From the NCBI GenBank assembly GCA_042570545.1, contig JBHPGJ010000003.1:8214-72213 (forward strand): a stretch of DNA of 64,000 nucleotides, written 5' to 3'. Source of the stretch: Patescibacteria group bacterium. Lineage in GTDB: Bacteria; Patescibacteriota; Patescibacteriia; JBHPGJ01. The notes below the pieces were generated by a model that ran no database searches, was not told the origin of the DNA, and saw nothing but the letters and a program-made list of their open reading frames with translations. Positions 4,752 to 43,808 of this stretch are shown here, piece by piece. Position 1 is the first letter of the stretch. Each line of letters opens with the position of its first letter. Made by a program: the position numbers and the translations under genes.

Positions 4752-5663
4752 TTATCCAGCGGTTCCTTGTGATACAGCGTTGAGGACAAAGTCGATAAAT
4801 ATCCAACTTAAAACGACTAATACAATGCCAATGGTAGCATATAACAATGTACTTTTACCAACTCTTATTTTTTCCTGATTACCGCCAGATAAGATCCAGG
4901 TAAAGCCACCCCAGACGAACATAAAGGTTCCAAAAACTCCTAGCACGCCAAGAGCAATACGGATTATATTGGTCATTACGCACTTTATATCATCGCAACC
5001 TGCCGGATTAGGTATGGTGGCCGTCCTAGAAAAAAGATAAGCTGAGGTGCTGGCTTCAGCGGCAGTCATGGGCACGGACAAGCCCGGGACATTGACCCCA
5101 TCACAACCAGAATTAGACATAGTGGACAGGTGGGTATGACCATCGTGGATATCAATATATTTAGCTTTGCCGTGACAGGCACCGCTCGGAAAGATCAGTG
5201 CACGAATGGCAGTGTATAACGCCGGCTCCATAGTTGGATCGTTAGCATTAAAATCAACCGCTTCGGCACCGGTAGTTCCATACCGGCCGCCATAGTGACA
5301 TGAATAAATAGCATGACAGGCGTTCGTTTGACAGGCTACGTCCATCCCGCAATCTCTTATACCGCGGGTGTAGTTGAGAGTGTCAACTTGGGGATCTATC
5401 TGATAAGTATATATTTTATTTGGGTCAATTAATGTCGGGTCGGGAATATTGGTTTGTATACAACCAATAAGACTATTGAGATCGGCTGAATTTTGGGCTG
5501 GGAATGGTACCCCGTACTGCGCCGCCAGCAAACTAGGATCATTACAAACGGCTTGCGCCAGCTTATAGCTGTCACCTTCGGCAGCTATAGTTTCTGTTGG
5601 GACAACAACCAGTGTAATTACAGTTAAAACACCAAACAATATTATTAACTTGATTTTATTCAT
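4752..5663 (-). CDS. Secreted cysteine-rich protein with a C-terminal double-TM anchor. Possibly a VirB2/TrbC-like pilin topology with a large N-terminal domain.
   Basis: 303 aa. N-terminal signal peptide (MNKIKLIILFGVLTVITLVVVP). About 11 Cys and many His in the central domain. The C-terminus carries two hydrophobic helices (ALGVLGVFGTFMFVWGGFTWIL / TLLYATIGIVLVVLSWIFIDFVL) separated by a short basic loop. Confidence 0.55.
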   Translation of the reverse strand: MNKIKLIILFGVLTVITLVVVPTETIAAEGDSYKLAQAVCNDPSLLAAQYGVPFPAQNSADLNSLIGCIQTNIPDPTLIDPNKIYTYQIDPQVDTLNYTRGIRDCGMDVACQTNACHAIYSCHYGGRYGTTGAEAVDFNANDPTMEPALYTAIRALIFPSGACHGKAKYIDIHDGHTHLSTMSNSGCDGVNVPGLSVPMTAAEASTSAYLFSRTATIPNPAGCDDIKCVMTNIIRIALGVLGVFGTFMFVWGGFTWILSGGNQEKIRVGKSTLLYATIGIVLVVLSWIFIDFVLNAVSQGTAG

Positions 5664-8996: not shown

Positions 8997-9779
8997 CTAC
9001 TGCATTAATGTATCAATTGCACTCTTAATCTGATCAACTGGCAGGGCTCCCGAAACTGGAACAGTATTGCCATCTTTATCAATCAGTACTGAGTATGGTG
9101 TTCCAGTCCCTCCGGCAGCATTAGCATCAGCTAAGTGCTCATTTACCTTATCGGTATATTTACCACTATCTAAACAAGATTCAAATTCACTTCTATCCAA
9201 ACCAATATCAGCGGCAATTTCTGGAAGCTGCTCAGGCCTCAACCCATTATTAGAAGGTGTAACTTCAAACAATGCATCTACAAACTCCCAAAAACCATCG
9301 TTGCCTCCCAATTCGGCGGCACATTCTGAGGCCTCGGCTTCATTGCGTGCTTTACTGTGCAGTGACTCAAGTGGAAAATGTCGATAAACCCAGGCCACTT
9401 TACCATCATAATCATCAACTACTTGCTGCATAGTTGGGTGGAATCTTTTACAGAATGGACATTCGAGATCAGAAAATTCCACTAATACTACTTCGGCTTT
9501 ATTCAAGTCTCCTTTAACATGATCTTCATCAGTTACCGGCTTAATACTTATCGCACCCTCTGAGGGTAGAGTTGGCTCGGTTGGTATTGTATTTTCATCA
9601 ACTTCAGTTTTTGCACTAGCCACCGATCCGCTACTGTCATCACTCAGCAATATACTTGTGCTTATCACAAACCCAGTTGTTACCGCTAAAAAGATAGCTA
9701 CTAGTAATCCAAAGAAGAAAGATTTTTTCGGACCTAATAAATTTAATATACTTTTTTTTGACTGTTCGTTATTAATCAT
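8997..9779 (-). CDS. DsbA-family thiol:disulfide oxidoreductase (thioredoxin fold), membrane-anchored
   Basis: 260 aa. N-terminal TM, then CPFC active-site motif (EFSDLECPFCKRFHP) and a DsbA-like fold with a cis-Pro region (GTPYSVLID). Overlaps the upstream gene's stop by 8 nt. Confidence 0.8.
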   Translation of the reverse strand: MINNEQSKKSILNLLGPKKSFFFGLLVAIFLAVTTGFVISTSILLSDDSSGSVASAKTEVDENTIPTEPTLPSEGAISIKPVTDEDHVKGDLNKAEVVLVEFSDLECPFCKRFHPTMQQVVDDYDGKVAWVYRHFPLESLHSKARNEAEASECAAELGGNDGFWEFVDALFEVTPSNNGLRPEQLPEIAADIGLDRSEFESCLDSGKYTDKVNEHLADANAAGGTGTPYSVLIDKDGNTVPVSGALPVDQIKSAIDTLMQ

Positions 9780-10722
9780 TATGTTCTTCCTTTAATTTAT
9801 AAGCCTCTGGGCCTAGATCCAAATCAATCTCTGCCCAGATTTTTAATTCTGGAGTTTCATCAAGAGTTGGGTTAGCCAGTATAGACACTGTTTTGAAGAA
9901 TCTGCCACTTGGTTCTTCGTGAAGATTAGGATCAAAACTAACTGTTAGTATGCCCTCATCTCCGGGCAAAAGAGTAGAATTAGATATCTCAGCAGATGTA
10001 CAGGCACAGCTGGCTGGCGTGCCGGTTACATCAATTTTCTCTTCACCATTATAGATAAAGGGAAAATCATATTCGATTATACCAGCACTTTGTTTAATAA
10101 CTCCAAAATCATGTTCCACCTCATTAAACGCAAAATCACCCAAGACTGATTGATAGCTAGATGAAGATTTGGTTTGCTGTTTCTCAAAATCATCAGCATA
10201 CATAACATCACCCGTTGTTTGTAATTCTATAACTGAACCAACGCCAGCATTGCTAGCAGTATAAGTTAGCTGTTTATCCGGCTCGGCACTGGTAGTAAGA
10301 TATACTGAACGCTGAATCGGGCCAACAGCTTGAGGGCCATGAGCCAATGGATCAAAAACTACATGTACTTTAAAGTTATCACCCGGATCAACTACACCGT
10401 TCCAGGTGCTATTGTTATGCATCCCAAATTTTGCAGAAGTAGTTCCATCTGATAATTCCACAAAGGCGGTGGTGCACATACATGAAGTTTCGCCAGTTTT
10501 TATGACTAGTGGTTCGTTAGATTCATTTTTTAGGGTAAAGATGTGATTAACATCACCACCCATTATGTCGATATTTTCCCAATCGTGCGTAACTATAGCA
10601 TTGGCAGCAATGGCCCCTGATGGCCAGGCGATTTCAGCAGCCGGGTTTTTACCGCCAAATATCAATATGGCTGATATTCCAGCAATGATCACGCCACCGA
10701 TAATAAACCATGAAGTTTTCAT
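9772..10722 (-). CDS. Secreted protein with two DUF1573-like domains, each carrying a CxC motif
   Basis: 316 aa with a signal/anchor. The S-C-x-C-T signature occurs twice (GETSCMCTTAFVE; PASCACTSAEIS), each within a beta-rich, roughly 120-aa module. Confidence 0.55.
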   Translation of the reverse strand: MKTSWFIIGGVIIAGISAILIFGGKNPAAEIAWPSGAIAANAIVTHDWENIDIMGGDVNHIFTLKNESNEPLVIKTGETSCMCTTAFVELSDGTTSAKFGMHNNSTWNGVVDPGDNFKVHVVFDPLAHGPQAVGPIQRSVYLTTSAEPDKQLTYTASNAGVGSVIELQTTGDVMYADDFEKQQTKSSSSYQSVLGDFAFNEVEHDFGVIKQSAGIIEYDFPFIYNGEEKIDVTGTPASCACTSAEISNSTLLPGDEGILTVSFDPNLHEEPSGRFFKTVSILANPTLDETPELKIWAEIDLDLGPEAYKLKEEHND

Positions 10723-14416: not shown

Positions 14417-17400
14417 CTATTCACTTATTTCCTCTCTGGGAATATATAAATCTTTTGACACACAAGTTCCATTCTCCTGACATCTCTTATTAGACGAACA
14501 GCCACAAACCTGGCAGTCGTTAATTAACTCATTATCCTCACAGAATAATGGCTTTTTTGACGAACATTCATTGATATAGGTCTTATCCGAACACTGCATT
14601 TTGAAATTACCAGTATGACGATTGTCATGCGAGAAGAGTGGCCAATCATTAATAGAGGGGATTTCCGGCACTCCTAAATCCCACACATAAATAGAACCAC
14701 GTTGCTTAGACCTATCATTAATAAAATCTTTATCGCGATTAGAGGTGGCTACGAGCTCCAATAAATTATCACCGTCAAGATCCACAATCATTGCTGGCGC
14801 GAGAGAATAAGACTCTGTGAGCTTTGGAAAGTCGGCTAATAGAGTGCCATCAAAATTCCAGGCAAAAACACCGCCACCATCATAAATACTACTATAATCA
14901 GTGGTGATAATCTCTGGTTCGCCGTCATTGTCTATATCTGCAGTAACGCTGCCGTATACATCAACCCAGGATGGGTTTTGTGGCCAGTCCTTGGCTATTG
15001 ATCCATCATGCTCAATCACAAATGTTTCAATATTATCATTACTAATTACCACTTCCAGGGTACCGTCTCCTTCAAAATCCGTTAGAGCAGGTGAAGAAAA
15101 GAAGTTGCCACCGCCTTGCAGGGCTGGCCAGCCTGTTAAATCTTGTCCATTTTTATCTAAGGCATAAACACCAAGGTCGTCCATCGTTCCAAATATTATA
15201 TCCGCGTTACCATCATTATCAATATCCCCAACTGCTGGTGAGTTAAATATATTTCCATCAATATCCACTGGCCAGCCGTTTACATATGAACAGTCAGAAT
15301 TAAGAACATTAATTCTTCCTGCAGATCTTTGATAGCCCACTTCTCTTAAGCTGATAATTACAATTTCTAACTCCTGATCTTCATCAAAGTTACCAACTGC
15401 TGGAGTGCCATATTCAACAAACCAATATTGATATGTAAAAGTATCAGTTAAGGTACATGTGGAGACAGGTGATGCATCATTATTAAGAATCTTAATTATA
15501 TTATCTTCTCCTTGTTGATCATGAATAATAACCTCAAGTTGCCCGTCTAGATCCAGATCCGCCATAGCCAGGCCTGTAATCTCTGATTCAAAATCCACTG
15601 GCCATCCTGGCACTTCTGATCCGTCTAAATTATAAGCATGAATTTGAGACGGTGAGGGTGAAAATCCCCAATTTTGAAAATGAACAACTATTTCATCTTT
15701 GCTATCATTATCAATGTCACCGACTACTGGTTTGTGCATATTTCCTCCAAGTAGTTTATCCCCGCTTACCCCGACATCAATCAAACCAATTTCATTTCCT
15801 GAAGCATTGTATATATGTAATTGGGGGGGGCAGTCACCAGCGTAAAATACTATCTCATTTTTACCATCGCCGTTAAAATCACCGACATTACCATCAAGAT
15901 CACCAGCCCATGCTTTACAATCAGCCAGTTCATGATCAATTCGCACAGGCCAACCCATTTTAAAATTATCAAAATATAATACTACCGTCTCCTCAGAATC
16001 GGAGTATATATCATAATTAACCATTAGTCTCAGCTCATATAAACCCTTGCTACCAATAACAGACGTATCCCAATATCCAATAATACTTTCATCAGTGTCA
16101 TCTAGCGTTAATCCAACATTGGACCAGTCGCCATCACTTATACGCCACTCAAGCACTGAATTTATTATATGATGCCCTTTTAAATCGCCTTTTATAACCA
16201 ATTCGTCGCCTATTCTATATATATCGTAATTCAACGGCTCATTAATTTTTACATTACTCACAAATATTGGAATAGTTTGTACAGACGATAAACCGCTCCC
16301 GTTAAAGACTTCGAGCTTCAAAGATATAGTATTATCCGGTGCGACCAAAGTATCAAGGCTGCCTAATGTCCCTCTATCAACCTCTAAAGTACCACTATTT
16401 TCTAGAGTGATGCCCTCGGTATACCACTGAGTTACTTCCTCTGGTTCGCCAACACCCCATGAAAGAGTATAATGGTCAAAGGTTGCTGTTTCCGAGGTGC
16501 CTTTTTTTGCCACACCGCTAATATTGATAGAATCTGTAACTTCATCATAATAAGTCGGGATCATAATACCTGCCAAGGGTTCATCAAATGTTGGCATTTT
16601 AATCGGAGTTTCGGGATCCCCAATCACATTTAGCTCATAAGCAACAAATCGTATATAAGGATCAGACAAATTACCAAAATTCTTAAACTTAGACTGGTAA
16701 TTTGCTTTTGCAATATTAGTAATGCCATCTACTATCATCGTATCAACAAACTGCCGATGAAACCTTTGCGAAGGCCCGTCTGTGGAATCAAATCTACCCC
16801 ACCCAAATCTGGAATTTCCAACAAAAGCAAATGCTCCGTTGTCATCCAGCACAAAATGCTCTGCAATAGAATCAGATTCTGTATAATCTCCCTCGTAATT
16901 CCAGTTGTCAAATGAGGCTGGATAGCATCCCTGAGAATATACCAAGAAATAATCTGTATTGGTCAGTTGATCCAAATCAGTATCTCCGCTGTCACCACAA
17001 TATGATCCTGGCGAATTAAACGGCGCATGACATAATTTCATATTATAAAGCGTACTGGAATGGCCTAAGTGGTTGATAAAATTAACGCCCTGATTCATGA
17101 TTTCGATTAATTCTGTATTAGACCATGAATAAACTTCAGAATCATAAATAGGATCAATTAAATAGTCTTCGTATAATCCATTAGTATTGTAACCATCATG
17201 GTAACCGCCCCATTTGATCTGCTCCATTGTTTCTGTAGCATATTCAGCCACTGTACCAAATCCCAAATGCTCCCCAACTGTTAATGCTTTTTTTAAGTAG
17301 TCAGCATCTGATTGCTCATAAGCAATTGTTTTACTGACGAAGGTCTGAACTTCAGCTGATGAATCAACTGGCGCTCTGCCTATATAAACATCGCCCATCA

Positions 17401-18880
17401 TTGGCAACTCACCGCCGCCAATTCCATCTCCTGGCTCGGCAAATTTGCCATCGCCGTCATAATCAAAATTAGAATAAACCGTACCATAATATATATCACT
17501 TGGGATACCGGCGCTATCGCTTAAACCAAAATCATAAAAAAGTCTTGCTGGAATAATCATATCACCGCTTTCACCACCTACATCTCCACCATCACCATCA
17601 CCACCCAACAAAACGTATTCCGTTGTTGAATTCGCCCAGACATCTCTGATAAAATTCCTGATTCTGGAAGCGTTATCATCATGTCCGGCCACATGGCAAT
17701 AATCATCCCCGAAATAAAAGTTCAATGATCTCATGTAAGCACTGTTGCATTCATAGTCCGGATTAGAGAGAATTGATTCAACCGTAACAACGGTAGAGCT
17801 GATGGGATTATTCGGTCGGCTTGCTTTCCAGTCAGCCAGGGGCTGAAAATCACTAACAAATTCTTCGCTGGTGATAATGACATAATTAAAATCAGACTGC
17901 GCAGTTTGGGAGCTTTCATCACTGCCTGATTCAGTAATTAATTTTTCATAGGCAGGCTCATCAATAGACTTTCCTTTTTTATAAGTATTTAATTTATCAT
18001 AATTATCCACCCTCACTTTTACTTCTTCCTCATCAACGGGCAGCTTTCTAAAAGAGGCCGGCACTTCATATCCTGCAACCTCCTTTGTTTTTACCTCAAA
18101 AGAAATATCCGGATAATATTCAACTATTCTGTCTTTCGGAAAGTACTTAACCGGAAAAATGTTTAAGATCAATATTGAGTAACCCCGAAACTCCTGTATT
18201 GAAGCAATTTCATAATCTTTTACCGGGAATGGCTTGCTGGATTCATAAATCTCCGGATCAGGGGCAGTTCTTACAAATAACTCTGTTTTTAGATTCCCTT
18301 CATCATCCAATAAATACTTTGGCACCTCTCCTCCAAATTTTTTCTTGACAAGTTCAATGTCTGGAGACGGAACAAATTCATCATAAAAAATTAATTCATC
18401 TGAATGTGTGGTACTGACAATCTCATTAATAGCAGGTAGATACGACAGAGGAATCGGCTGTTGAACTGGTTCAATATTAACATTTTTGAACACTTGTTTA
18501 CTTTTTTTACTTATACTAACTGAGTCAACGTCATGTCCTTGCGGTAGCAGGATCCTTTTTGTCATAACTGGCAAACTGGGCTCTCCTAGATTTCCGATTG
18601 GATTCGTTCCTTCAATAGTAACTGAATGAAATCCAAAATCCTTATTATCAATCCTTGGTGTTGGGGCCGATACTTGCAAGGAAAATGTGGGTTTAACAAT
18701 TGATTTAAAAATTCCAATGTCTTTGCCAAATAAACCATAGCTTGCTGCCGCATAAGCAAAAAATCCAACAGAAATTACTAACAGTAAAGCTGTAACAATT
18801 AACGTTTTAGCATTAACATAAATTCCAATATCTGATTTTACTTCGGTTGATATTGATTCTGTTATTTTTTGAGAAGTCAT
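14417..18880 (-). CDS. Giant surface protein: N-terminal signal anchor, propeptide, C25 (gingipain-like) cysteine peptidase domain, a seven-bladed FG-GAP beta-propeller region, and a C-terminal Cys-rich (EGF-like) module
   Basis: 1487 aa. Catalytic His in INHLGHSS and catalytic Cys in VYSQGCYPASF (C25 His/Cys dyad context), plus HVAGHDDNA, YVLLGGDGDGGD and GNSRFGWG. Seven FG-GAP-like Ca-binding repeats: GDFNGDGKNEIV, GDIDNDSKDEIV, ADLDLDGQLEVI, GDIDNDGNADII, TDFEGDGTLEVV, ADIDNDGEPEII and VDLDGDNLLELV. The C-terminus has 10 Cys in about 60 aa. Confidence 0.8.
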   Translation of the reverse strand: MTSQKITESISTEVKSDIGIYVNAKTLIVTALLLVISVGFFAYAAASYGLFGKDIGIFKSIVKPTFSLQVSAPTPRIDNKDFGFHSVTIEGTNPIGNLGEPSLPVMTKRILLPQGHDVDSVSISKKSKQVFKNVNIEPVQQPIPLSYLPAINEIVSTTHSDELIFYDEFVPSPDIELVKKKFGGEVPKYLLDDEGNLKTELFVRTAPDPEIYESSKPFPVKDYEIASIQEFRGYSILILNIFPVKYFPKDRIVEYYPDISFEVKTKEVAGYEVPASFRKLPVDEEEVKVRVDNYDKLNTYKKGKSIDEPAYEKLITESGSDESSQTAQSDFNYVIITSEEFVSDFQPLADWKASRPNNPISSTVVTVESILSNPDYECNSAYMRSLNFYFGDDYCHVAGHDDNASRIRNFIRDVWANSTTEYVLLGGDGDGGDVGGESGDMIIPARLFYDFGLSDSAGIPSDIYYGTVYSNFDYDGDGKFAEPGDGIGGGELPMMGDVYIGRAPVDSSAEVQTFVSKTIAYEQSDADYLKKALTVGEHLGFGTVAEYATETMEQIKWGGYHDGYNTNGLYEDYLIDPIYDSEVYSWSNTELIEIMNQGVNFINHLGHSSTLYNMKLCHAPFNSPGSYCGDSGDTDLDQLTNTDYFLVYSQGCYPASFDNWNYEGDYTESDSIAEHFVLDDNGAFAFVGNSRFGWGRFDSTDGPSQRFHRQFVDTMIVDGITNIAKANYQSKFKNFGNLSDPYIRFVAYELNVIGDPETPIKMPTFDEPLAGIMIPTYYDEVTDSINISGVAKKGTSETATFDHYTLSWGVGEPEEVTQWYTEGITLENSGTLEVDRGTLGSLDTLVAPDNTISLKLEVFNGSGLSSVQTIPIFVSNVKINEPLNYDIYRIGDELVIKGDLKGHHIINSVLEWRISDGDWSNVGLTLDDTDESIIGYWDTSVIGSKGLYELRLMVNYDIYSDSEETVVLYFDNFKMGWPVRIDHELADCKAWAGDLDGNVGDFNGDGKNEIVFYAGDCPPQLHIYNASGNEIGLIDVGVSGDKLLGGNMHKPVVGDIDNDSKDEIVVHFQNWGFSPSPSQIHAYNLDGSEVPGWPVDFESEITGLAMADLDLDGQLEVIIHDQQGEDNIIKILNNDASPVSTCTLTDTFTYQYWFVEYGTPAVGNFDEDQELEIVIISLREVGYQRSAGRINVLNSDCSYVNGWPVDIDGNIFNSPAVGDIDNDGNADIIFGTMDDLGVYALDKNGQDLTGWPALQGGGNFFSSPALTDFEGDGTLEVVISNDNIETFVIEHDGSIAKDWPQNPSWVDVYGSVTADIDNDGEPEIITTDYSSIYDGGGVFAWNFDGTLLADFPKLTESYSLAPAMIVDLDGDNLLELVATSNRDKDFINDRSKQRGSIYVWDLGVPEIPSINDWPLFSHDNRHTGNFKMQCSDKTYINECSSKKPLFCEDNELINDCQVCGCSSNKRCQENGTCVSKDLYIPREEISE

Positions 18881-34955: not shown

Positions 34956-36647
34956 CTAATTCTTTTTTGCTTTAGCAACTAACATTATCAATAGTACCAA
35001 TACCACCGCTACCAGCAAAGTTGTTAGCCATATTTTTGCACCTAGACCAAATTTAGTGCTGTCTTCCGTAGCTGTGGTAGCGGTAGTGGTGGCTGCAGGA
35101 ATATTTGTAGTAGTAACATTAAAATTAATTGCTTCACTTTGACTTATATTATCACCTTTGGTATCGATGATTTTTATCTGCACCTTATGTTCTCCCGGTT
35201 CTAATGGGCCAGGTAGGGTGTATGACCAGTCACCATCACCATTACTGAACGTGGTAGCAATCAATGTCTCCTGGCTAGCTATCGATAAAATTACAGTTGC
35301 ATTCGGTTGAGTTGTGCCACTGAATTTTATGGCTTCATCATCAGTAAATTGTAGCGTTGTTCCGGTTTTGGCGGTAATGACTTCCCCGGCTTCAATAAAT
35401 TCCATAATACTTACATTTCCCAGTACAGAGGTTAGGCCTGCCGTCGGGGCTTCAACTGGAATATTTTCTTGAAGCCAAGCAGACAAACGATCAATTGGCG
35501 TAGAGTGGTCAATATGAAACTGCATTTCCGTACAGCGGGGATAGCGGTTCCAGTATTGATTATAAGTAGTATAGACCTGTTCTAGGTACTGATCATCAGA
35601 ATTATTAGGGGTTAATTTAGATGATAATCTGATGGTATCATCACCGGCGGTGGTAGTAGATATTTTACAGCCAAATTTTTCAGTCAGAGCCTCACTGTTC
35701 AGCCACTCGACAAGTCGTTCAATTGGCGTAGAGTGGTCATAATGAAATTGCATTTCCGTACAACGAGGATATCGATTCCAAACACCATAATAAGCATTAT
35801 ATACCCGTTTAAAGTATGTATCGATATCACTACCAGTAGTAAACTCTTTATTAATTCGTATAGTATTTTCATCAGCGCCGGATATGCTAAAGGCACAGCC
35901 ATAAGCACTGGTTACTGCGTTATCTGCTATGGCTATCTGTCCTGAAGCCAGGGTAGTAAATGTTAATATATCAGAAGTAACATCAGCATCAGCATCAAGT
36001 ACGCCATATAATTCACGATAGCTGTCGGATACTGAAGCTGTGAACCTTATATAATATGTAGTCGAGGGATTTAGGGGTTCAATTTTTCGTACATGTACTA
36101 GGCCACCAGCCCCTGCGCGCCCACCTCCCAGGCTGTATACTTCGTTGGGTAATGTATCGGAAACAGTACCGTAGTTGTATTTAATTATTCCCTCTTTGGA
36201 TAAATTTACGTTAATAAAGGCTGACGTATCGGTTATGCCATCTATCTCAATATTATCTACGGCGATACCACGTTTGGTTGTGCTAAATGTATTTTCACCT
36301 GACACGGTTTGATTATCAGCCCCGTCTATCGCAGTTACTTGATAATAATAAGCAGTATCATATTCAAGACCGGTCAACACCGCCACCACCCGGTTGCTTC
36401 CCTGCACATTACCGGTAATGGTTTCAGTGTAATTTCCTAGTGAAGTACCATATTTTATATTGCCGGTTATTGGCTCGGTTGACCGCCAATCGATAGAATA
36501 ACTAACCTTTTCAGCTTCTTGATTAAGATGGGCGCTTATATATATGATTGGTGGCGCATCGGGATCTTGGGCATCAACCGTACTATGTAAAAAAAGAAAC
36601 CCCATTAATAAAACTACCATATATATTAAGGTTGATAACTTTTTCAT
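34956..36647 (-). CDS. Surface protein: signal peptide, fibronectin type III-like domain, two internal repeats, Ig-like C-terminal region, C-terminal TM and basic tail
   Basis: 563 aa. An FN3-like stretch (LTGLEYDTAYYYQVTAIDGADN). A duplicated roughly 60-aa module (YFKRVYNAYYGVWNRYPRCTEMQFHYDHSTPIERLVEWL / YLEQVYTTYNQYWNRYPRCTEMQFHIDHSTPIDRLSAWL). C-terminus LTTLLVAVVLVLLIMLVAKAKKN. Confidence 0.6.
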   Translation of the reverse strand: MKKLSTLIYMVVLLMGFLFLHSTVDAQDPDAPPIIYISAHLNQEAEKVSYSIDWRSTEPITGNIKYGTSLGNYTETITGNVQGSNRVVAVLTGLEYDTAYYYQVTAIDGADNQTVSGENTFSTTKRGIAVDNIEIDGITDTSAFINVNLSKEGIIKYNYGTVSDTLPNEVYSLGGGRAGAGGLVHVRKIEPLNPSTTYYIRFTASVSDSYRELYGVLDADADVTSDILTFTTLASGQIAIADNAVTSAYGCAFSISGADENTIRINKEFTTGSDIDTYFKRVYNAYYGVWNRYPRCTEMQFHYDHSTPIERLVEWLNSEALTEKFGCKISTTTAGDDTIRLSSKLTPNNSDDQYLEQVYTTYNQYWNRYPRCTEMQFHIDHSTPIDRLSAWLQENIPVEAPTAGLTSVLGNVSIMEFIEAGEVITAKTGTTLQFTDDEAIKFSGTTQPNATVILSIASQETLIATTFSNGDGDWSYTLPGPLEPGEHKVQIKIIDTKGDNISQSEAINFNVTTTNIPAATTTATTATEDSTKFGLGAKIWLTTLLVAVVLVLLIMLVAKAKKN

Positions 36648-40189: not shown

Positions 40190-42562
40190 TTAGTTAGACT
40201 TTTTTCGTCGAAAGGCTAACTTTTTTGGTCTGACAAGCACAATTCCTACTGCCACCAACAGCAGTCCACTGACAAACATCAGATAATCTTTAAACTGGAT
40301 TCCCGTGTCAGCCAGCGCACCCAATACTTCAGGTACGCGAATTTCCAATGAAGCTGTGTCTTGTACTTCATCGTGATTATCGGCCCAGGTGACAGCAATA
40401 TTGTCATAGGTGCCAGCTGTCTGATTACTTTTGATAGTTACCTCATAATTCGTTTCCGTACTCTTTCCCGGCTGTAGGTCACCCAGCTCCCATTCTTGCG
40501 TATCCTTACCATCACTATAAGTAAAACCAGCCGGTAGTGTATCCATCAACATGGTGTTCAGGGCAGCCCCTTCGCCTACGTTGGCTACGGTAATGGTATA
40601 CTGTACCGTATCTCCGGGATTAGCAAATTCTTGGCCAACTTCCTTAACTATTTCTAGCACTGGTTCAGTTACCTCACCTAATACTTGTGGCACATTTACC
40701 ACCACTAGGGCATTATCGGAAGCAATTTTCTGCTTTACTATTGTCAAGGTTGGCTGGGCAGCCGTAACAGAGAAATTAGCCGGAACTAATGTCTTTTCTT
40801 CAACCACTCCTTCTTCACCATAAACGGTACCGAATATTGTGACTTCATTTAGCAGCTCATCACCATCCTGAACTTCCTCAGATACGGTTACCGTTATTGT
40901 TTCTGAACCAGTAACTACTGGGGTATGCGGTCCGATATATGTCCAGGTTACAGTATGCTTTTGGGCATCATAGGTTGCTGTTCCGGTGGCGCCAGCGAAA
41001 GCGACTTCGGCTGGTAAAGTATCTACTACTACAACTTCATCAACATTCATAACACCAGTTAATTCCCAATCAATGGTATAAGTCACCGTATCGTCTGGCT
41101 CAACCTCGGTCGAATCAGCTGATTTGGTGATATTAACATCGAAGTCTGGCTGGTTACCAAAGTTACACATTTGACGTGGTACAAATTCACGACTAATTGT
41201 TGCTACTTGAGGTGATAAACAGGTGCTTTCACCTTCTGGCAATATTATGGTGTGACAGTTGTTATTCGCCGGGTGTGTTTGTTTATAGCTATCTTGCTGT
41301 ACTTCACATATATCATATGTACCAGCTGGTAAATTGAACTGGTAATTTCCATTCACATCTGTTTGGGTACTAGCCACTAACGAAGTTTCTTGTCGAGCTT
41401 CAATTGTCCAATTTTCAAGTTTTGGTTCACAGTCTGGTTCTATAACTTCGTCAACATTAATAGATGTAGATTCACAATCTCTTTCACCATTGCCATTAAT
41501 ATCGTGCCACTTATACCCATGAACCGGATAGGTTTCTTGAACATTCCATGAGACACAATAATATGCTTCGTCTGCATTTGGTCTGCTTATCCATTCAAGG
41601 TTGTCATAATTTTTTACGTCATTATTACAGTAGAATTCAGCCGTATAATGATTGCTATTACTTGTGCCAGTGAAAGGAATATATCCGTCCTGCCATACTT
41701 CTCTAAACCAGAAAGTTTCAGTTTGATCATTCTCAATTTGATCGAGGTCAAGTTCAACCATGGTCATTCCGTTGCTATCGGTTGGGCCAAATGTACTCCA
41801 GAGACCACTTGCTTCACCCGTATTATCACCAGGGTTATAATCAGGATGACTAGTAGATACGTTTATGCGCCACTGGAAGTCCCAGCCAGCTGCGAATTCA
41901 CAACTATCGTGTCCATCCACCCAAACTTGAGCAGTATTTGCGTCGATTATAAAAGATCCGCCCTTGTGGCGATCAGGCAGTTCAGATTCATCAGTACAAA
42001 CTATTTTGTGTGCCACTATTGTTACTGGACCAAGTGGTTCCTCAATAATTTCAACAATGCTTCTGGTCTCGCATGAGTAACCTTTTCCATAAAGTGACTC
42101 CAGAATTGCAAAATCAACATCATCCACTATCCCATTACCATCAAAATCGCCACTTAAATCACTGCCGGCCTGTGCGATGCTAAACATTGACAGATCGATC
42201 AGATCCACCACCCCGTCGCCATTCATGTCCGGACAAGCAGGTACTTGATCAAAGCTATTATACCAATCGGCACATGAAAAACTGGCTGATGGATACACGC
42301 TCTCAAACATTGCAAAATCAATATCATCGACCGTGCCACTGCCGTCAAAATCACCCGACGGATGGTTATCGTTGTGTGCGATACCAAACATCGAGAAATC
42401 TACCAAATCAATTACCCCATCAGAATTCATGTCCGGACAAGGTAGCACCCCCGATTCGGCTACAGCCGGTCTTATCATTGTCCCAATTAGAGACATATTA
42501 ATTACCGTGATTGCCATGATAAAAACATGGAATCCCCGGCTAAATGTATGTTTGTTAAACAT
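40190..42562 (-). CDS. Surface protein: signal/TM, two tandem N-terminal dockerin-type modules, Cys-containing central domain, DUF11-like repeat region, C-terminal LAXTG-type sorting signal
   Basis: 790 aa. Dockerin Ca-binding repeats DMNSDGVIDLVD / DFDGSGTVDDID and DMNGDGVVDLID / DFDGNGIVDDVD. DUF11-like beta-repeats (ITKSADSTEVEPDDTVTYTIDW; ITVANVGEGAAL). C-terminus LADTG, then a hydrophobic stretch (IQFKDYLMFVSGLLLVAVGIVLV), then RPKKLAFRRKKSN. A terminator hairpin lies downstream (40150-40185). Confidence 0.65.
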   Translation of the reverse strand: MFNKHTFSRGFHVFIMAITVINMSLIGTMIRPAVAESGVLPCPDMNSDGVIDLVDFSMFGIAHNDNHPSGDFDGSGTVDDIDFAMFESVYPSASFSCADWYNSFDQVPACPDMNGDGVVDLIDLSMFSIAQAGSDLSGDFDGNGIVDDVDFAILESLYGKGYSCETRSIVEIIEEPLGPVTIVAHKIVCTDESELPDRHKGGSFIIDANTAQVWVDGHDSCEFAAGWDFQWRINVSTSHPDYNPGDNTGEASGLWSTFGPTDSNGMTMVELDLDQIENDQTETFWFREVWQDGYIPFTGTSNSNHYTAEFYCNNDVKNYDNLEWISRPNADEAYYCVSWNVQETYPVHGYKWHDINGNGERDCESTSINVDEVIEPDCEPKLENWTIEARQETSLVASTQTDVNGNYQFNLPAGTYDICEVQQDSYKQTHPANNNCHTIILPEGESTCLSPQVATISREFVPRQMCNFGNQPDFDVNITKSADSTEVEPDDTVTYTIDWELTGVMNVDEVVVVDTLPAEVAFAGATGTATYDAQKHTVTWTYIGPHTPVVTGSETITVTVSEEVQDGDELLNEVTIFGTVYGEEGVVEEKTLVPANFSVTAAQPTLTIVKQKIASDNALVVVNVPQVLGEVTEPVLEIVKEVGQEFANPGDTVQYTITVANVGEGAALNTMLMDTLPAGFTYSDGKDTQEWELGDLQPGKSTETNYEVTIKSNQTAGTYDNIAVTWADNHDEVQDTASLEIRVPEVLGALADTGIQFKDYLMFVSGLLLVAVGIVLVRPKKLAFRRKKSN

Positions 42563-42692: not shown

Positions 42693-43808
42693 TTAGTATT
42701 GGTTGAGTTTGGGATGTTTTATCCTATATACAAATACTAAACTAGCACCCAAAATGACCATAATAAAAGCCAACAATCCAAGGGTCCAATATTTGTTCAC
42801 TCCGGTCAGAAATAGCCCGGCCAGACCAAAAACAGATGATAGAAACAATAAAAATGTAACTGATTTGCGGTGAGACAAACCAACGTCTAATAAACGGAAA
42901 TGTAGGTGTTTTTTATCTCCTTTAAACGGTGAACGTCTTTCAATGATAACTCTTCTGATAATTACCCACACCACATCCAATATCGGTATTCCCATAACTA
43001 ACAAAGCAGTTGCTATTTTGCTGCCCGCGATGATAGACAATATGCCCAGCATAAATCCAATAAATACGCTTCCCCCTTCACCCAGAAAGATCTTGGCCGG
43101 GTGCCAGTTAAAAAATAAAAAACCCAGACAAGCACCAAGCAGAATAGCTGACAGCAGGGCCGTGCCGGGCTGTATAACGTCTGACCGTAATGAGATAATG
43201 AATATTACTAACGATCCAATGGCGCCCAGACCGGCGGTCAGACCATCAAGTCCATCTAGGAACTTAGTAGTATACATCATACCTAATAACCAGAAGAGAG
43301 CAAAAATATCGGCCCACAGAGTAACTTGAAATATGGTCTGGCCAATAGTTAAAACATCAATATTAAATTGATCTAAATTTATCACCCCGCCAAAGGGATT
43401 GGATATAAAATCAATGCCGATGCCGGCAGCGACAATCGCCAAACTAGCCAACAGTGGCCAAATAATCTGTTTGGCAGCTTTTAAATGATAGCGGTCATCA
43501 AGCCAGCCACCGATCATTAATAAGCCACCGCCAATAATGATGCCGACTATATATTTCCAAGGCATGCCATCCCCTATTAACCGGTTAGAGAAAAAGGCTA
43601 CGGCCAGCATGCTAATCACCACGCTTAAATAAACTGCCAAGCCGCCTAACAGTGGACGTGGGATTTGATGTATTTTTCTTTCTGGTGCTGATTCAGGATA
43701 ATCTATTGTCCCCCAGCGAAAGGCTAATCTCTTTACTACAAGCGTAGCCACTACAGTCAAAGCCAGACTGATGATAAAAGCTATAATATACCAGGAATAT
43801 TTATCCAT
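42693..43808 (-). CDS. MraY/WecA-family polyprenyl-phosphate N-acetylhexosamine-1-phosphate transferase (GT4 integral-membrane enzyme)
   Basis: 371 aa, about 10 TM. The signature is TKFLDGLDGLTAGL, with cytoplasmic-loop Asp residues (GGWLDDRYHL). Confidence 0.7.
   Translation of the reverse strand: MDKYSWYIIAFIISLALTVVATLVVKRLAFRWGTIDYPESAPERKIHQIPRPLLGGLAVYLSVVISMLAVAFFSNRLIGDGMPWKYIVGIIIGGGLLMIGGWLDDRYHLKAAKQIIWPLLASLAIVAAGIGIDFISNPFGGVINLDQFNIDVLTIGQTIFQVTLWADIFALFWLLGMMYTTKFLDGLDGLTAGLGAIGSLVIFIISLRSDVIQPGTALLSAILLGACLGFLFFNWHPAKIFLGEGGSVFIGFMLGILSIIAGSKIATALLVMGIPILDVVWVIIRRVIIERRSPFKGDKKHLHFRLLDVGLSHRKSVTFLLFLSSVFGLAGLFLTGVNKYWTLGLLAFIMVILGASLVFVYRIKHPKLNQY

Follow-up and report, generated by a model that had tools for sequence, protein, structure and literature searches.

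Fibrillar adhesins built on CLIPPER domains combine a signal peptide, an N-terminal binding module, an Ig-like stalk of the isopeptide type and a C-terminal sorting or anchoring signal, and the crystal structure of CLIPPER, as DUF11 has been renamed, shows a CnaA-like isopeptide stalk domain of these adhesins (PMC12617251; 9IFR). Among dockerins, a close described case is dDoc_0689, a double dockerin belonging to an S8 protease from C. thermocellum (PDB 8x39; Chen et al. 2024, cited in PMC12484212), which, according to PMC12484212, carries tandem dockerins with two F-hand Ca loops each and is proposed to serve cell-surface attachment, not integration into an enzyme scaffold. [quoted passage not shown] More than half of CPR genomes carry a sortase (PMC6744442), and in Southlakia, a patescibacterium in culture, an envelope protein with a dockerin domain is essential (PMC10633639). 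In the literature that we searched, no description of sortase-anchored adhesins in Patescibacteria was found. Here we analysed a 64-kb stretch of contig JBHPGJ010000003.1 from a Patescibacteria group bacterium (hereafter the window), and in it a 790-aa open reading frame (ORF) at 40190-42562 on the minus strand, whose product (P0001) is identical to MFC1662759.1, labelled by NCBI as 'NEW3 domain-containing protein [Patescibacteria group bacterium]' and encoded on a 91-kb contig. We consider it probable, at about 0.62, that this product is a Sec-secreted, sortase-processed surface protein with the build of a Gram-positive fibrillar adhesin, in which a stalk carries a double-dockerin tip. An earlier, sequence-only reading of the gene had pictured a protein anchored at one end with a binding module at the other, and this overall picture was supported by the dockerin-type modules, the DUF11 stalk and the sorting signal.

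Two dockerin-like modules lie near the N-terminus, at aa 42-97 (42272..42439, minus strand) and aa 110-164 (42071..42235, minus strand). Each has two F-hand repeats with putative Ca-binding loops, which a loop regular expression placed at aa 44-55 (DMNSDGVIDLVD) and aa 71-82 (DFDGSGTVDDID) in module 1 and at aa 112-123 (DMNGDGVVDLID) and aa 139-150 (DFDGNGIVDDVD) in module 2, exactly as the sequence-only reading had quoted them. All four loops have 12 residues, with acidic or polar ligands at positions 1, 3, 5, 9 and 12 and Gly at position 6, and both pairs conform to the dockerin repeat, an F-hand of ~22 residues made up of the loop D-x-[DN]-x-[DNS]-G-x-[IV]-[DN]-x-x-D and then a helix. The paired-repeat layout is kept, and so are the helix-forming hydrophobic positions that follow the loops. 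Module 1 and module 2 share 59% identity (BLASTP E 1e-23), indicating that they are truly duplicated and not a chance resemblance. Scanned alone, they scored 24.3 and 29.1 bits on Pfam Dockerin_1 (PF00404, gathering cutoff 22.9 bits), and the tandem scanned alone scored 40.7 bits (E 2.8e-10). A profile of the modules run against all PDB sequences gave 26 matches at E<=1, nearly all of them dockerins, with 8x39 at the top (E 6.6e-9). A word-indexed homolog search with the tandem returned no relatives and an exhaustive phmmer search was needed, which among 1.84 billion representatives identified 443 relatives at E<=1e-3 and 45 at E<=1e-10. The relatives that were scanned score 39-232 bits on Dockerin_1, some of them matching almost the whole profile, with the exception of P0101 at 21.5 bits, just below the cutoff. 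Moreover, hhalign aligned the query modules with bona fide dockerin modules (185-232 bits) at 97.7% probability (E 2.3e-12) over 51 columns, spanning the N-terminal Cys through both F-hands. On this profile evidence, the N-terminal modules are divergent members of the dockerin family.

Each module is also bracketed by two Cys residues (C42...C97 and C110...C164), one located two residues before the first loop and the other shortly after the second helix, and a rough regular expression recovered this bracket in 92 of 347 related modules. In other dockerins, residues -3 to -1 make a non-covalent 'intramolecular clasp' with the C-terminus (PMC3821032). Because the Cys bracket occupies the place of this non-covalent clasp, each module is probably stapled N-to-C by a predicted disulfide, as a covalent version of the dockerin clasp.

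The placement and copy number of the modules had been called unusual, which the relatives contradict. Of 149 relatives, 102 place their first loop in the N-terminal 130 aa, proteins with 2-8 or more modules in a row are common, and 8x39 is itself a solved double dockerin. In four relatives (P0054, P0055, P0063 and P0074), the signal peptide, the tandem and the linker between the modules recur as one unit with 42-46% identity to the query; in P0055, from Ca. Kerfeldbacteria (MBI3115551.1), the unit is 45% identical. At least six other representatives pair N-terminal dockerins with sortase-type tails (LPKAG, LAATG and LPNTG, two each), and P0082 combines dockerins, DUF4215, DUF11 and LPKAG, and its locus has a sortase at a distance of 1.7 kb upstream and, on the downstream side, a paralogous SpaA/CLIPPER protein. 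Across the sequences compared, N-terminal tandem dockerins are normal for the dockerin subfamily of the query. The surface proteins of CPR and DPANN members with Cys-bracketed dockerin arrays (for example P0055, P0082 and P0044) share this module type but have other C-terminal parts (a P/T/A-rich linker plus transmembrane (TM) segment, PG_binding_1 or DUF4215), and only the query joins the tandem to the stalk of CnaB-like, SdrD-B and CLIPPER domains that characterizes its ribosomal-operon-linked ortholog group. Within that group, the positional orthologs P0002 and P0003 have the signal peptide, the stalk domains and the sorting signal in common with the query but have different N-terminal domains after the signal peptide. 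The tip may therefore be swappable, a pattern that fits a conserved, anchored stalk bearing a ligand-binding tip that varies.

The stalk appears to comprise four cross-link-type Ig-like domains: one CnaB-like, one SdrD-B-like and two CLIPPER/DUF11. The first of them, at aa 179-343 (41534..42028, minus strand), had been overlooked by the sequence-only reading and is the real core of the protein family, being its most conserved element, with 47 occurrences in 34 of the 43 proteins of the homolog set. No Pfam or NCBIfam model matched it in the query, nor any of 36 copies (0/36). Its invariant residues are K186, R287, E288, N340, four Cys (C189, C221, C312, C336) and a D..DN motif. CnaB-type domains are prealbumin/CnaB-like beta-sandwiches with a Lys in the first strand, an Asn or Asp in the last strand and a catalytic Glu or Asp; the modelled fold of the middle domain is CnaB/pilin-like, and a Lys-Asn isopeptide bond between K186 and N340 is predicted. 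A scan of GTDB species representatives, with eight close copies of the domain as the query, identified 79 loci, almost all in Patescibacteria and from many of its classes. The middle domain was also seen in metagenome-assembled genomes labelled as DPANN archaea (Micrarchaeota, Burarchaeum; L027, L037), and a Cys-bracketed dockerin array was seen on 11 contigs in a Woesearchaeota metagenome-assembled genome (P0045); these occurrences reflect either cross-domain sharing between ultra-small episymbionts or mis-binning.

The second stalk domain, at aa 346-470 (41153..41527, minus strand), contains six Cys and resembles SdrD-B/prealbumin-like domains, with SdrD_B at 24.8 bits and CarboxypepD_reg at 24.1 bits, both below cutoff; the region is PF17210-positive in many homologs. 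The DUF11 repeats reported earlier were confirmed, as Pfam DUF11 (PF01345) scored 88.2 bits over two copies against a cutoff of 24.6, and TIGR01451 scored 74 bits. CLIPPER/DUF11 domain 1 covers aa 474-580 (40823..41143, minus strand), with a putative triad of K480, D514 and N572 read from the sequence, and the NCBIfam model RrgB_K2N_iso_D2 matched aa 477-566 at 39.8 bits (cutoff 30). Domain 2 covers aa 634-745 (40328..40663, minus strand; best DUF11 stretch aa 636-733), with K640, D674 and N721 as the putative triad. Alignment to the solved CLIPPER 9IFR placed K640 at the first-strand Lys and D674 at the Asp of NDTL, while N721 was read from the sequence. A 'VLG[AE]' motif also stands just before the sortase signal or before a C-terminal PG_binding_1 ('VLGAST..C...'), also where DUF11 is absent (aa 627-629 and 745-747 of the query; homologs P0012-P0015, P0017, P0034, P0037, P0042 and P0052), and the sortase signal and PG_binding_1 look like alternative modes of wall attachment behind this common linker motif. 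'VLG' as a separate cleavage motif was set aside, as it ends each CLIPPER repeat but also precedes PG_binding_1 without DUF11.

Both ends of the protein carry targeting signals. The predicted signal peptide covers aa 1-36 (MFNKHTFSRGFHVFIMAITVINMSLIGTMIRPAVA, with cleavage before ES; 42455..42562, minus strand) and shows a basic n-region, a hydrophobic core and an AVA-type cleavage site; its core SRGFHVF.MA.TV is conserved in P0002 and P0003. All 14 Cys residues of the protein are within the exported part. At the extreme C-terminus, a sortase-type sorting signal occupies aa 748-790 (40193..40321, minus strand), where the sequence runs ...VLGALADTG-IQFKD-YLMFVSGLLLVAVGIVLV-RPKKLAFRRKKSN. Together with the N-terminal signal peptide, the pentapeptide, hydrophobic segment and basic tail make up the full set of features that defines a sorting signal. 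The tripartite organization proposed earlier thus stood in its pentapeptide, hydrophobic stretch and basic tail, but the stretch given as 23 aa includes a charged five-residue spacer (IQFKD), and the uncharged core is 18 aa. The extended pattern L[APV]D[TA]G-xxx-[RKL]D[YI], followed by a TM segment and a basic tail, is conserved in the closest homologs at an overall identity of 34-47%. The pentapeptides of the homologs are LADTG, LADAG, LVDAG, LVDTG, LPDTG, LPVTG, LPETG, LPATG and LPNTG. These features suggest that the protein is probably anchored to the cell wall by a sortase. In a separate subgroup (L011, L013, L014, L016, L020 and P0019), a sortase lies directly upstream of a surface protein with '…VPYTG…' and a TM segment, after which ~200 extra C-terminal residues follow, ending in 'DGTYTDEASAVKMAIMKAVKE'; such a cytoplasmic extension past a putative sorting signal would be odd for a sortase substrate.

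In the relatives, the linkage to sortases is direct. In 27 of 78 middle-domain loci, a sortase on the same strand is no more than 300 nt away, and this holds for 19 of the 42 loci that have 3 kb or more of flanking sequence at each end. Downstream of the LADTG homolog P0005, the sortase begins after 4 nt; in a genome of 1.18 Mb the gene for P0004 (LVDTG) is followed by a paralog (LPDTG) and then by one sortase. The sortases beside L[PAV]xTG proteins pass only the generic model TIGR01076 and score 71-86 bits on the class C model (cutoff 160; 66-86 bits over the neighbouring sortases of relatives), and those beside the LADTG, LVDTG and LPNTG homologs score 61.4, 71.6 and 79.3 bits on the class E model (NF033747, cutoff 160), so that none belongs to class E. 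Sortases beside 'GA[AP]x[TA]G' tails belong to class F (173-177 bits, cutoff 166); two of them (L007, 3009-3719; L012, 7283-7918) overlap the 3' ends of family members with tails such as 'LGAADTG', 'GAPDAG' and 'GAANTG', which points to a pentapeptide variant rich in Gly and Ala for the class F sortases of the CPR. At a further locus (L073, 695-3796), the CnaB-like middle domain and the catalytic domain of a sortase (…TLITCHP…) share one ORF of 1033 aa, either as a natural substrate-sortase fusion or as a frameshift or assembly artefact.

We propose the following course for the protein. After Sec export, extracytoplasmic oxidoreductases would make its disulfides, and the stalk domains would probably lock themselves by autocatalytic intramolecular Lys-Asn isopeptide bonds. 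A CPR sortase of the housekeeping type, with its gene outside the window, elsewhere in the genome, would then cut between Thr and Gly of LADTG and join the Thr to the wall peptide, so that the anchored protein would project its N-terminus outward. At the distal tip, the tandem dockerins would bind Ca2+, each probably stapled N-to-C by its disulfide, and the tip would bind a protein partner, cohesin-like or other, on a host cell or on a component of the cell's own surface. The tip would act as a swappable cassette on the conserved stalk.

Several results weigh against this proposal. In the full-length protein, the Dockerin_1 scan suggested by the sequence-only reading gave 20.3 bits, below the cutoff that the modules and the tandem exceed when scanned alone, and the matches were mostly to single F-hands. 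The linker between the repeats is six residues shorter than in canonical dockerins, both in the hhalign alignment and against PDB 6kg9, and a single-sequence AlphaFold2 model of the tandem had a mean confidence (pLDDT) of only 32. As had been reported before, the window contains neither a cohesin, among the ~40 ORFs scanned, nor a sortase, for which a six-frame search with a CPR-sortase hidden Markov model (HMM) was null at E<=10. No sortase adjoins the gene or that of its positional ortholog P0002, and the NCBIfam LPXTG-anchor model did not match the protein. Since no sortase was found in the window or beside the positional ortholog, the proposed anchoring requires a sortase elsewhere in the genome.

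The dockerin-related points bear most on a different view of the tip, namely that the modules are related to dockerins only in the Ca-binding F-hand and do not dock cohesins, but serve as Ca2+-dependent structural or rigidifying modules or bind glycans or other ligands, with the anchoring model unchanged. The single-F-hand matches and the shortened linker fit this view, as does the lack of a cohesin in the window and in four dockerin- or homolog-bearing related loci that were inspected. Partnerless non-cellulosomal dockerin-like modules are described as widespread in Peer et al. 2009, as that work is cited in PMC3821032, and the dockerin protein of Southlakia was speculated to target host glycans (PMC10633639). 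However, every solved relative that we found is a cohesin-binding dockerin, and the query retains the paired repeats with their hydrophobic helix positions. We regard a non-docking tip as a serious possibility, though one that we would not bet on. A role as a cellulosome component was considered separately and rejected, as the window showed no cellulosome context (no cohesin scaffoldin and no carbohydrate-active enzymes) and the operon is a ribosomal/housekeeping one.

The scores of the adjoining sortases also bear on the question of whether P0001 could be a pilin, polymerized by a sortase head-to-tail, alone or with paralogs, into a covalent pilus in the manner of the Gram-positive SpaA or RrgB. 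Such an assembly appears unlikely, because the protein has no YPK-type pilin motif, the related loci carry one sortase instead of a pilin-specific and housekeeping pair, their sortases failed the class C model at 83-86 bits, and the target locus is a single surface-protein gene without a sortase. In addition, the bulky N-terminal double dockerin suits a tip or a monomeric adhesin better than a shaft subunit.

The missing sortase could alternatively mean that LADTG is fortuitous and that the TM helix and the basic stop-transfer tail hold the protein in the membrane without any sortase. Besides the absence of a sortase from the window and from the surroundings of the positional ortholog, this is favoured by family members that adjoin sortases yet have tails without a clear xxTG motif (L025, L031, L063) and by a protein of the window itself, encoded at 34956-36647 (minus strand), with a C-terminal TM segment and a basic tail but no pentapeptide. 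On the other side stand the extended signal, which is kept in the closest homologs despite their low overall identity, the homologs in which a like signal is directly followed by a sortase, and the family-wide adjacency described above, and we think a plain membrane anchor quite unlikely for P0001. The neighbour at 34956-36647 is a 563-aa exported protein with Pur_ac_phosph_N and Big_13 domains, a Thr/Ala-rich linker and a TM segment ending in 'VAKAKKN', and its plain C-terminal anchoring shows that a sortase signal is not present on all surface proteins here.

The remaining proposal, made by the sequence-only reading from the Ala at position 2 of LAXTG, was that the protein is a substrate of an actinobacterial-type class E sortase, and despite the motif LADTG and two dockerin relatives with LAATG tails and GC-rich-looking sequence (P0075, P0143) we rejected it as very improbable on the curated-model scores, which largely refute it for the relatives (61-79 bits against 160, with other family sortases in class F), given also that P, A and V interchange at position 2 even in one locus with a single sortase and that the host is a patescibacterium. 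LAXTG here does not imply a class E sortase; for that claim the value of our results is mostly corrective.

We then compared sortase anchoring with a dockerin tip, the reading that we favour, with the described systems. The query shares the overall plan of CLIPPER fibrillar adhesins, and its two CLIPPER domains pass the HMM with their Lys and Asp aligned to 9IFR. It differs in that its host belongs to the CPR, which has 0 mentions in the survey of these adhesins (PMC12617251), in that its tip is a double dockerin and not a known adhesive domain, and in having a stalk domain without a Pfam family. Unlike the Gram-positive MSCRAMM proteins and pilins (SpaA, SpaD, RrgB, SdrD), it lacks a pilin motif, and the sortases of its relatives belong to class F or to no curated class, and not to class A or C; the middle domain, with its four invariant Cys, is found almost only in Patescibacteria. 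In contrast to type I dockerins and dDoc_0689, its modules have no cellulosome context and no cohesin in sight, are N-terminal on a probably wall-anchored stalk, have a linker shorter by six residues, and carry a Cys pair in place of the non-covalent clasp. The design is made of known parts that are common to other proteins; it is not categorically new and is a fairly typical adhesin design. What is new is the occurrence in the CPR, a CnaB-like family without annotation that is in tight linkage with sortases, a set of sortases outside the curated classes, and a short-linker dockerin subtype with a predicted disulfide bracket as the putative tip of an adhesin.

For the Patescibacteria, the locus points to a third, Gram-positive-style route of attachment next to the two kinds of pili, by sortase-anchored, cross-link-stabilized fibres with swappable tips, and the route would be widespread over patescibacterial classes, given 79 species-representative loci of which a third have an adjoining sortase. 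The analysis also brings out a fairly large domain family that Pfam lacks, along with sortases outside every curated class, and the dockerin tip offers a concrete handle for finding the binding partner. A bolder version, to which we give little credence, is that Patescibacteria have a lineage-specific sortase-dependent fibre system, with the non-Pfam CnaB-like domain, an unclassified sortase clade and interchangeable tips, in which the disulfide-clasped double dockerin found here docks the epibiont to a cohesin-like receptor on the surface of a host or partner. If so, a cohesin-dockerin-type interaction would serve inter-cellular attachment and not enzyme scaffolding.

The gene lies in a ribosomal/housekeeping operon, in a window with a GC content of ~41%. 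In the ribosomal operon, S5 is followed directly by L15 without L30, as it is at the orthologous locus (L006); a missing L30 is a marker of the CPR. The synteny with P0002 is identical and runs through the ribosomal operon, SecY, Adk, Map, RuvX, GT4, the gene itself, DUF192, L21, RecR, YbaB and DnaB. The gene directly upstream, at 42693-43808 (minus strand), encodes a Glycos_transf_4 protein that is kept in the ortholog locus and scores higher as WecA/TagO (95 bits) than as MraY (66 bits), with neither score reaching its cutoff; the protein might start the synthesis of a wall polymer, beside the gene of a probably wall-anchored protein.

Other genes of the window were noted as well. Two overlapping genes on the minus strand, at 8997-9779 and 9772-10722, encode a DsbA/Thioredoxin_4-like exported oxidoreductase and a DUF1573 (Ig-like) protein, and this pair could plausibly form disulfides among the 14 extracytoplasmic Cys residues of P0001; MdbA-like oxidoreductases are enriched in the CPR (Méheust et al. 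2019; PMC6744442). At 14417-18880 (minus strand), a 1487-aa secreted protein carries a Peptidase_C25 domain of the gingipain family (181 bits), a C25 propeptide and FG-GAP repeats, with weak similarity to PorU-type 'sortase' models of the type IX secretion system (35 bits against a cutoff of 420); such a large cysteine protease is notable for a minimal CPR genome. Finally, a 303-aa protein encoded at 4752-5663 (minus strand) has a C-terminal pilin domain of the type IV secretion system (VirB2/TrbC-like, 40 bits).

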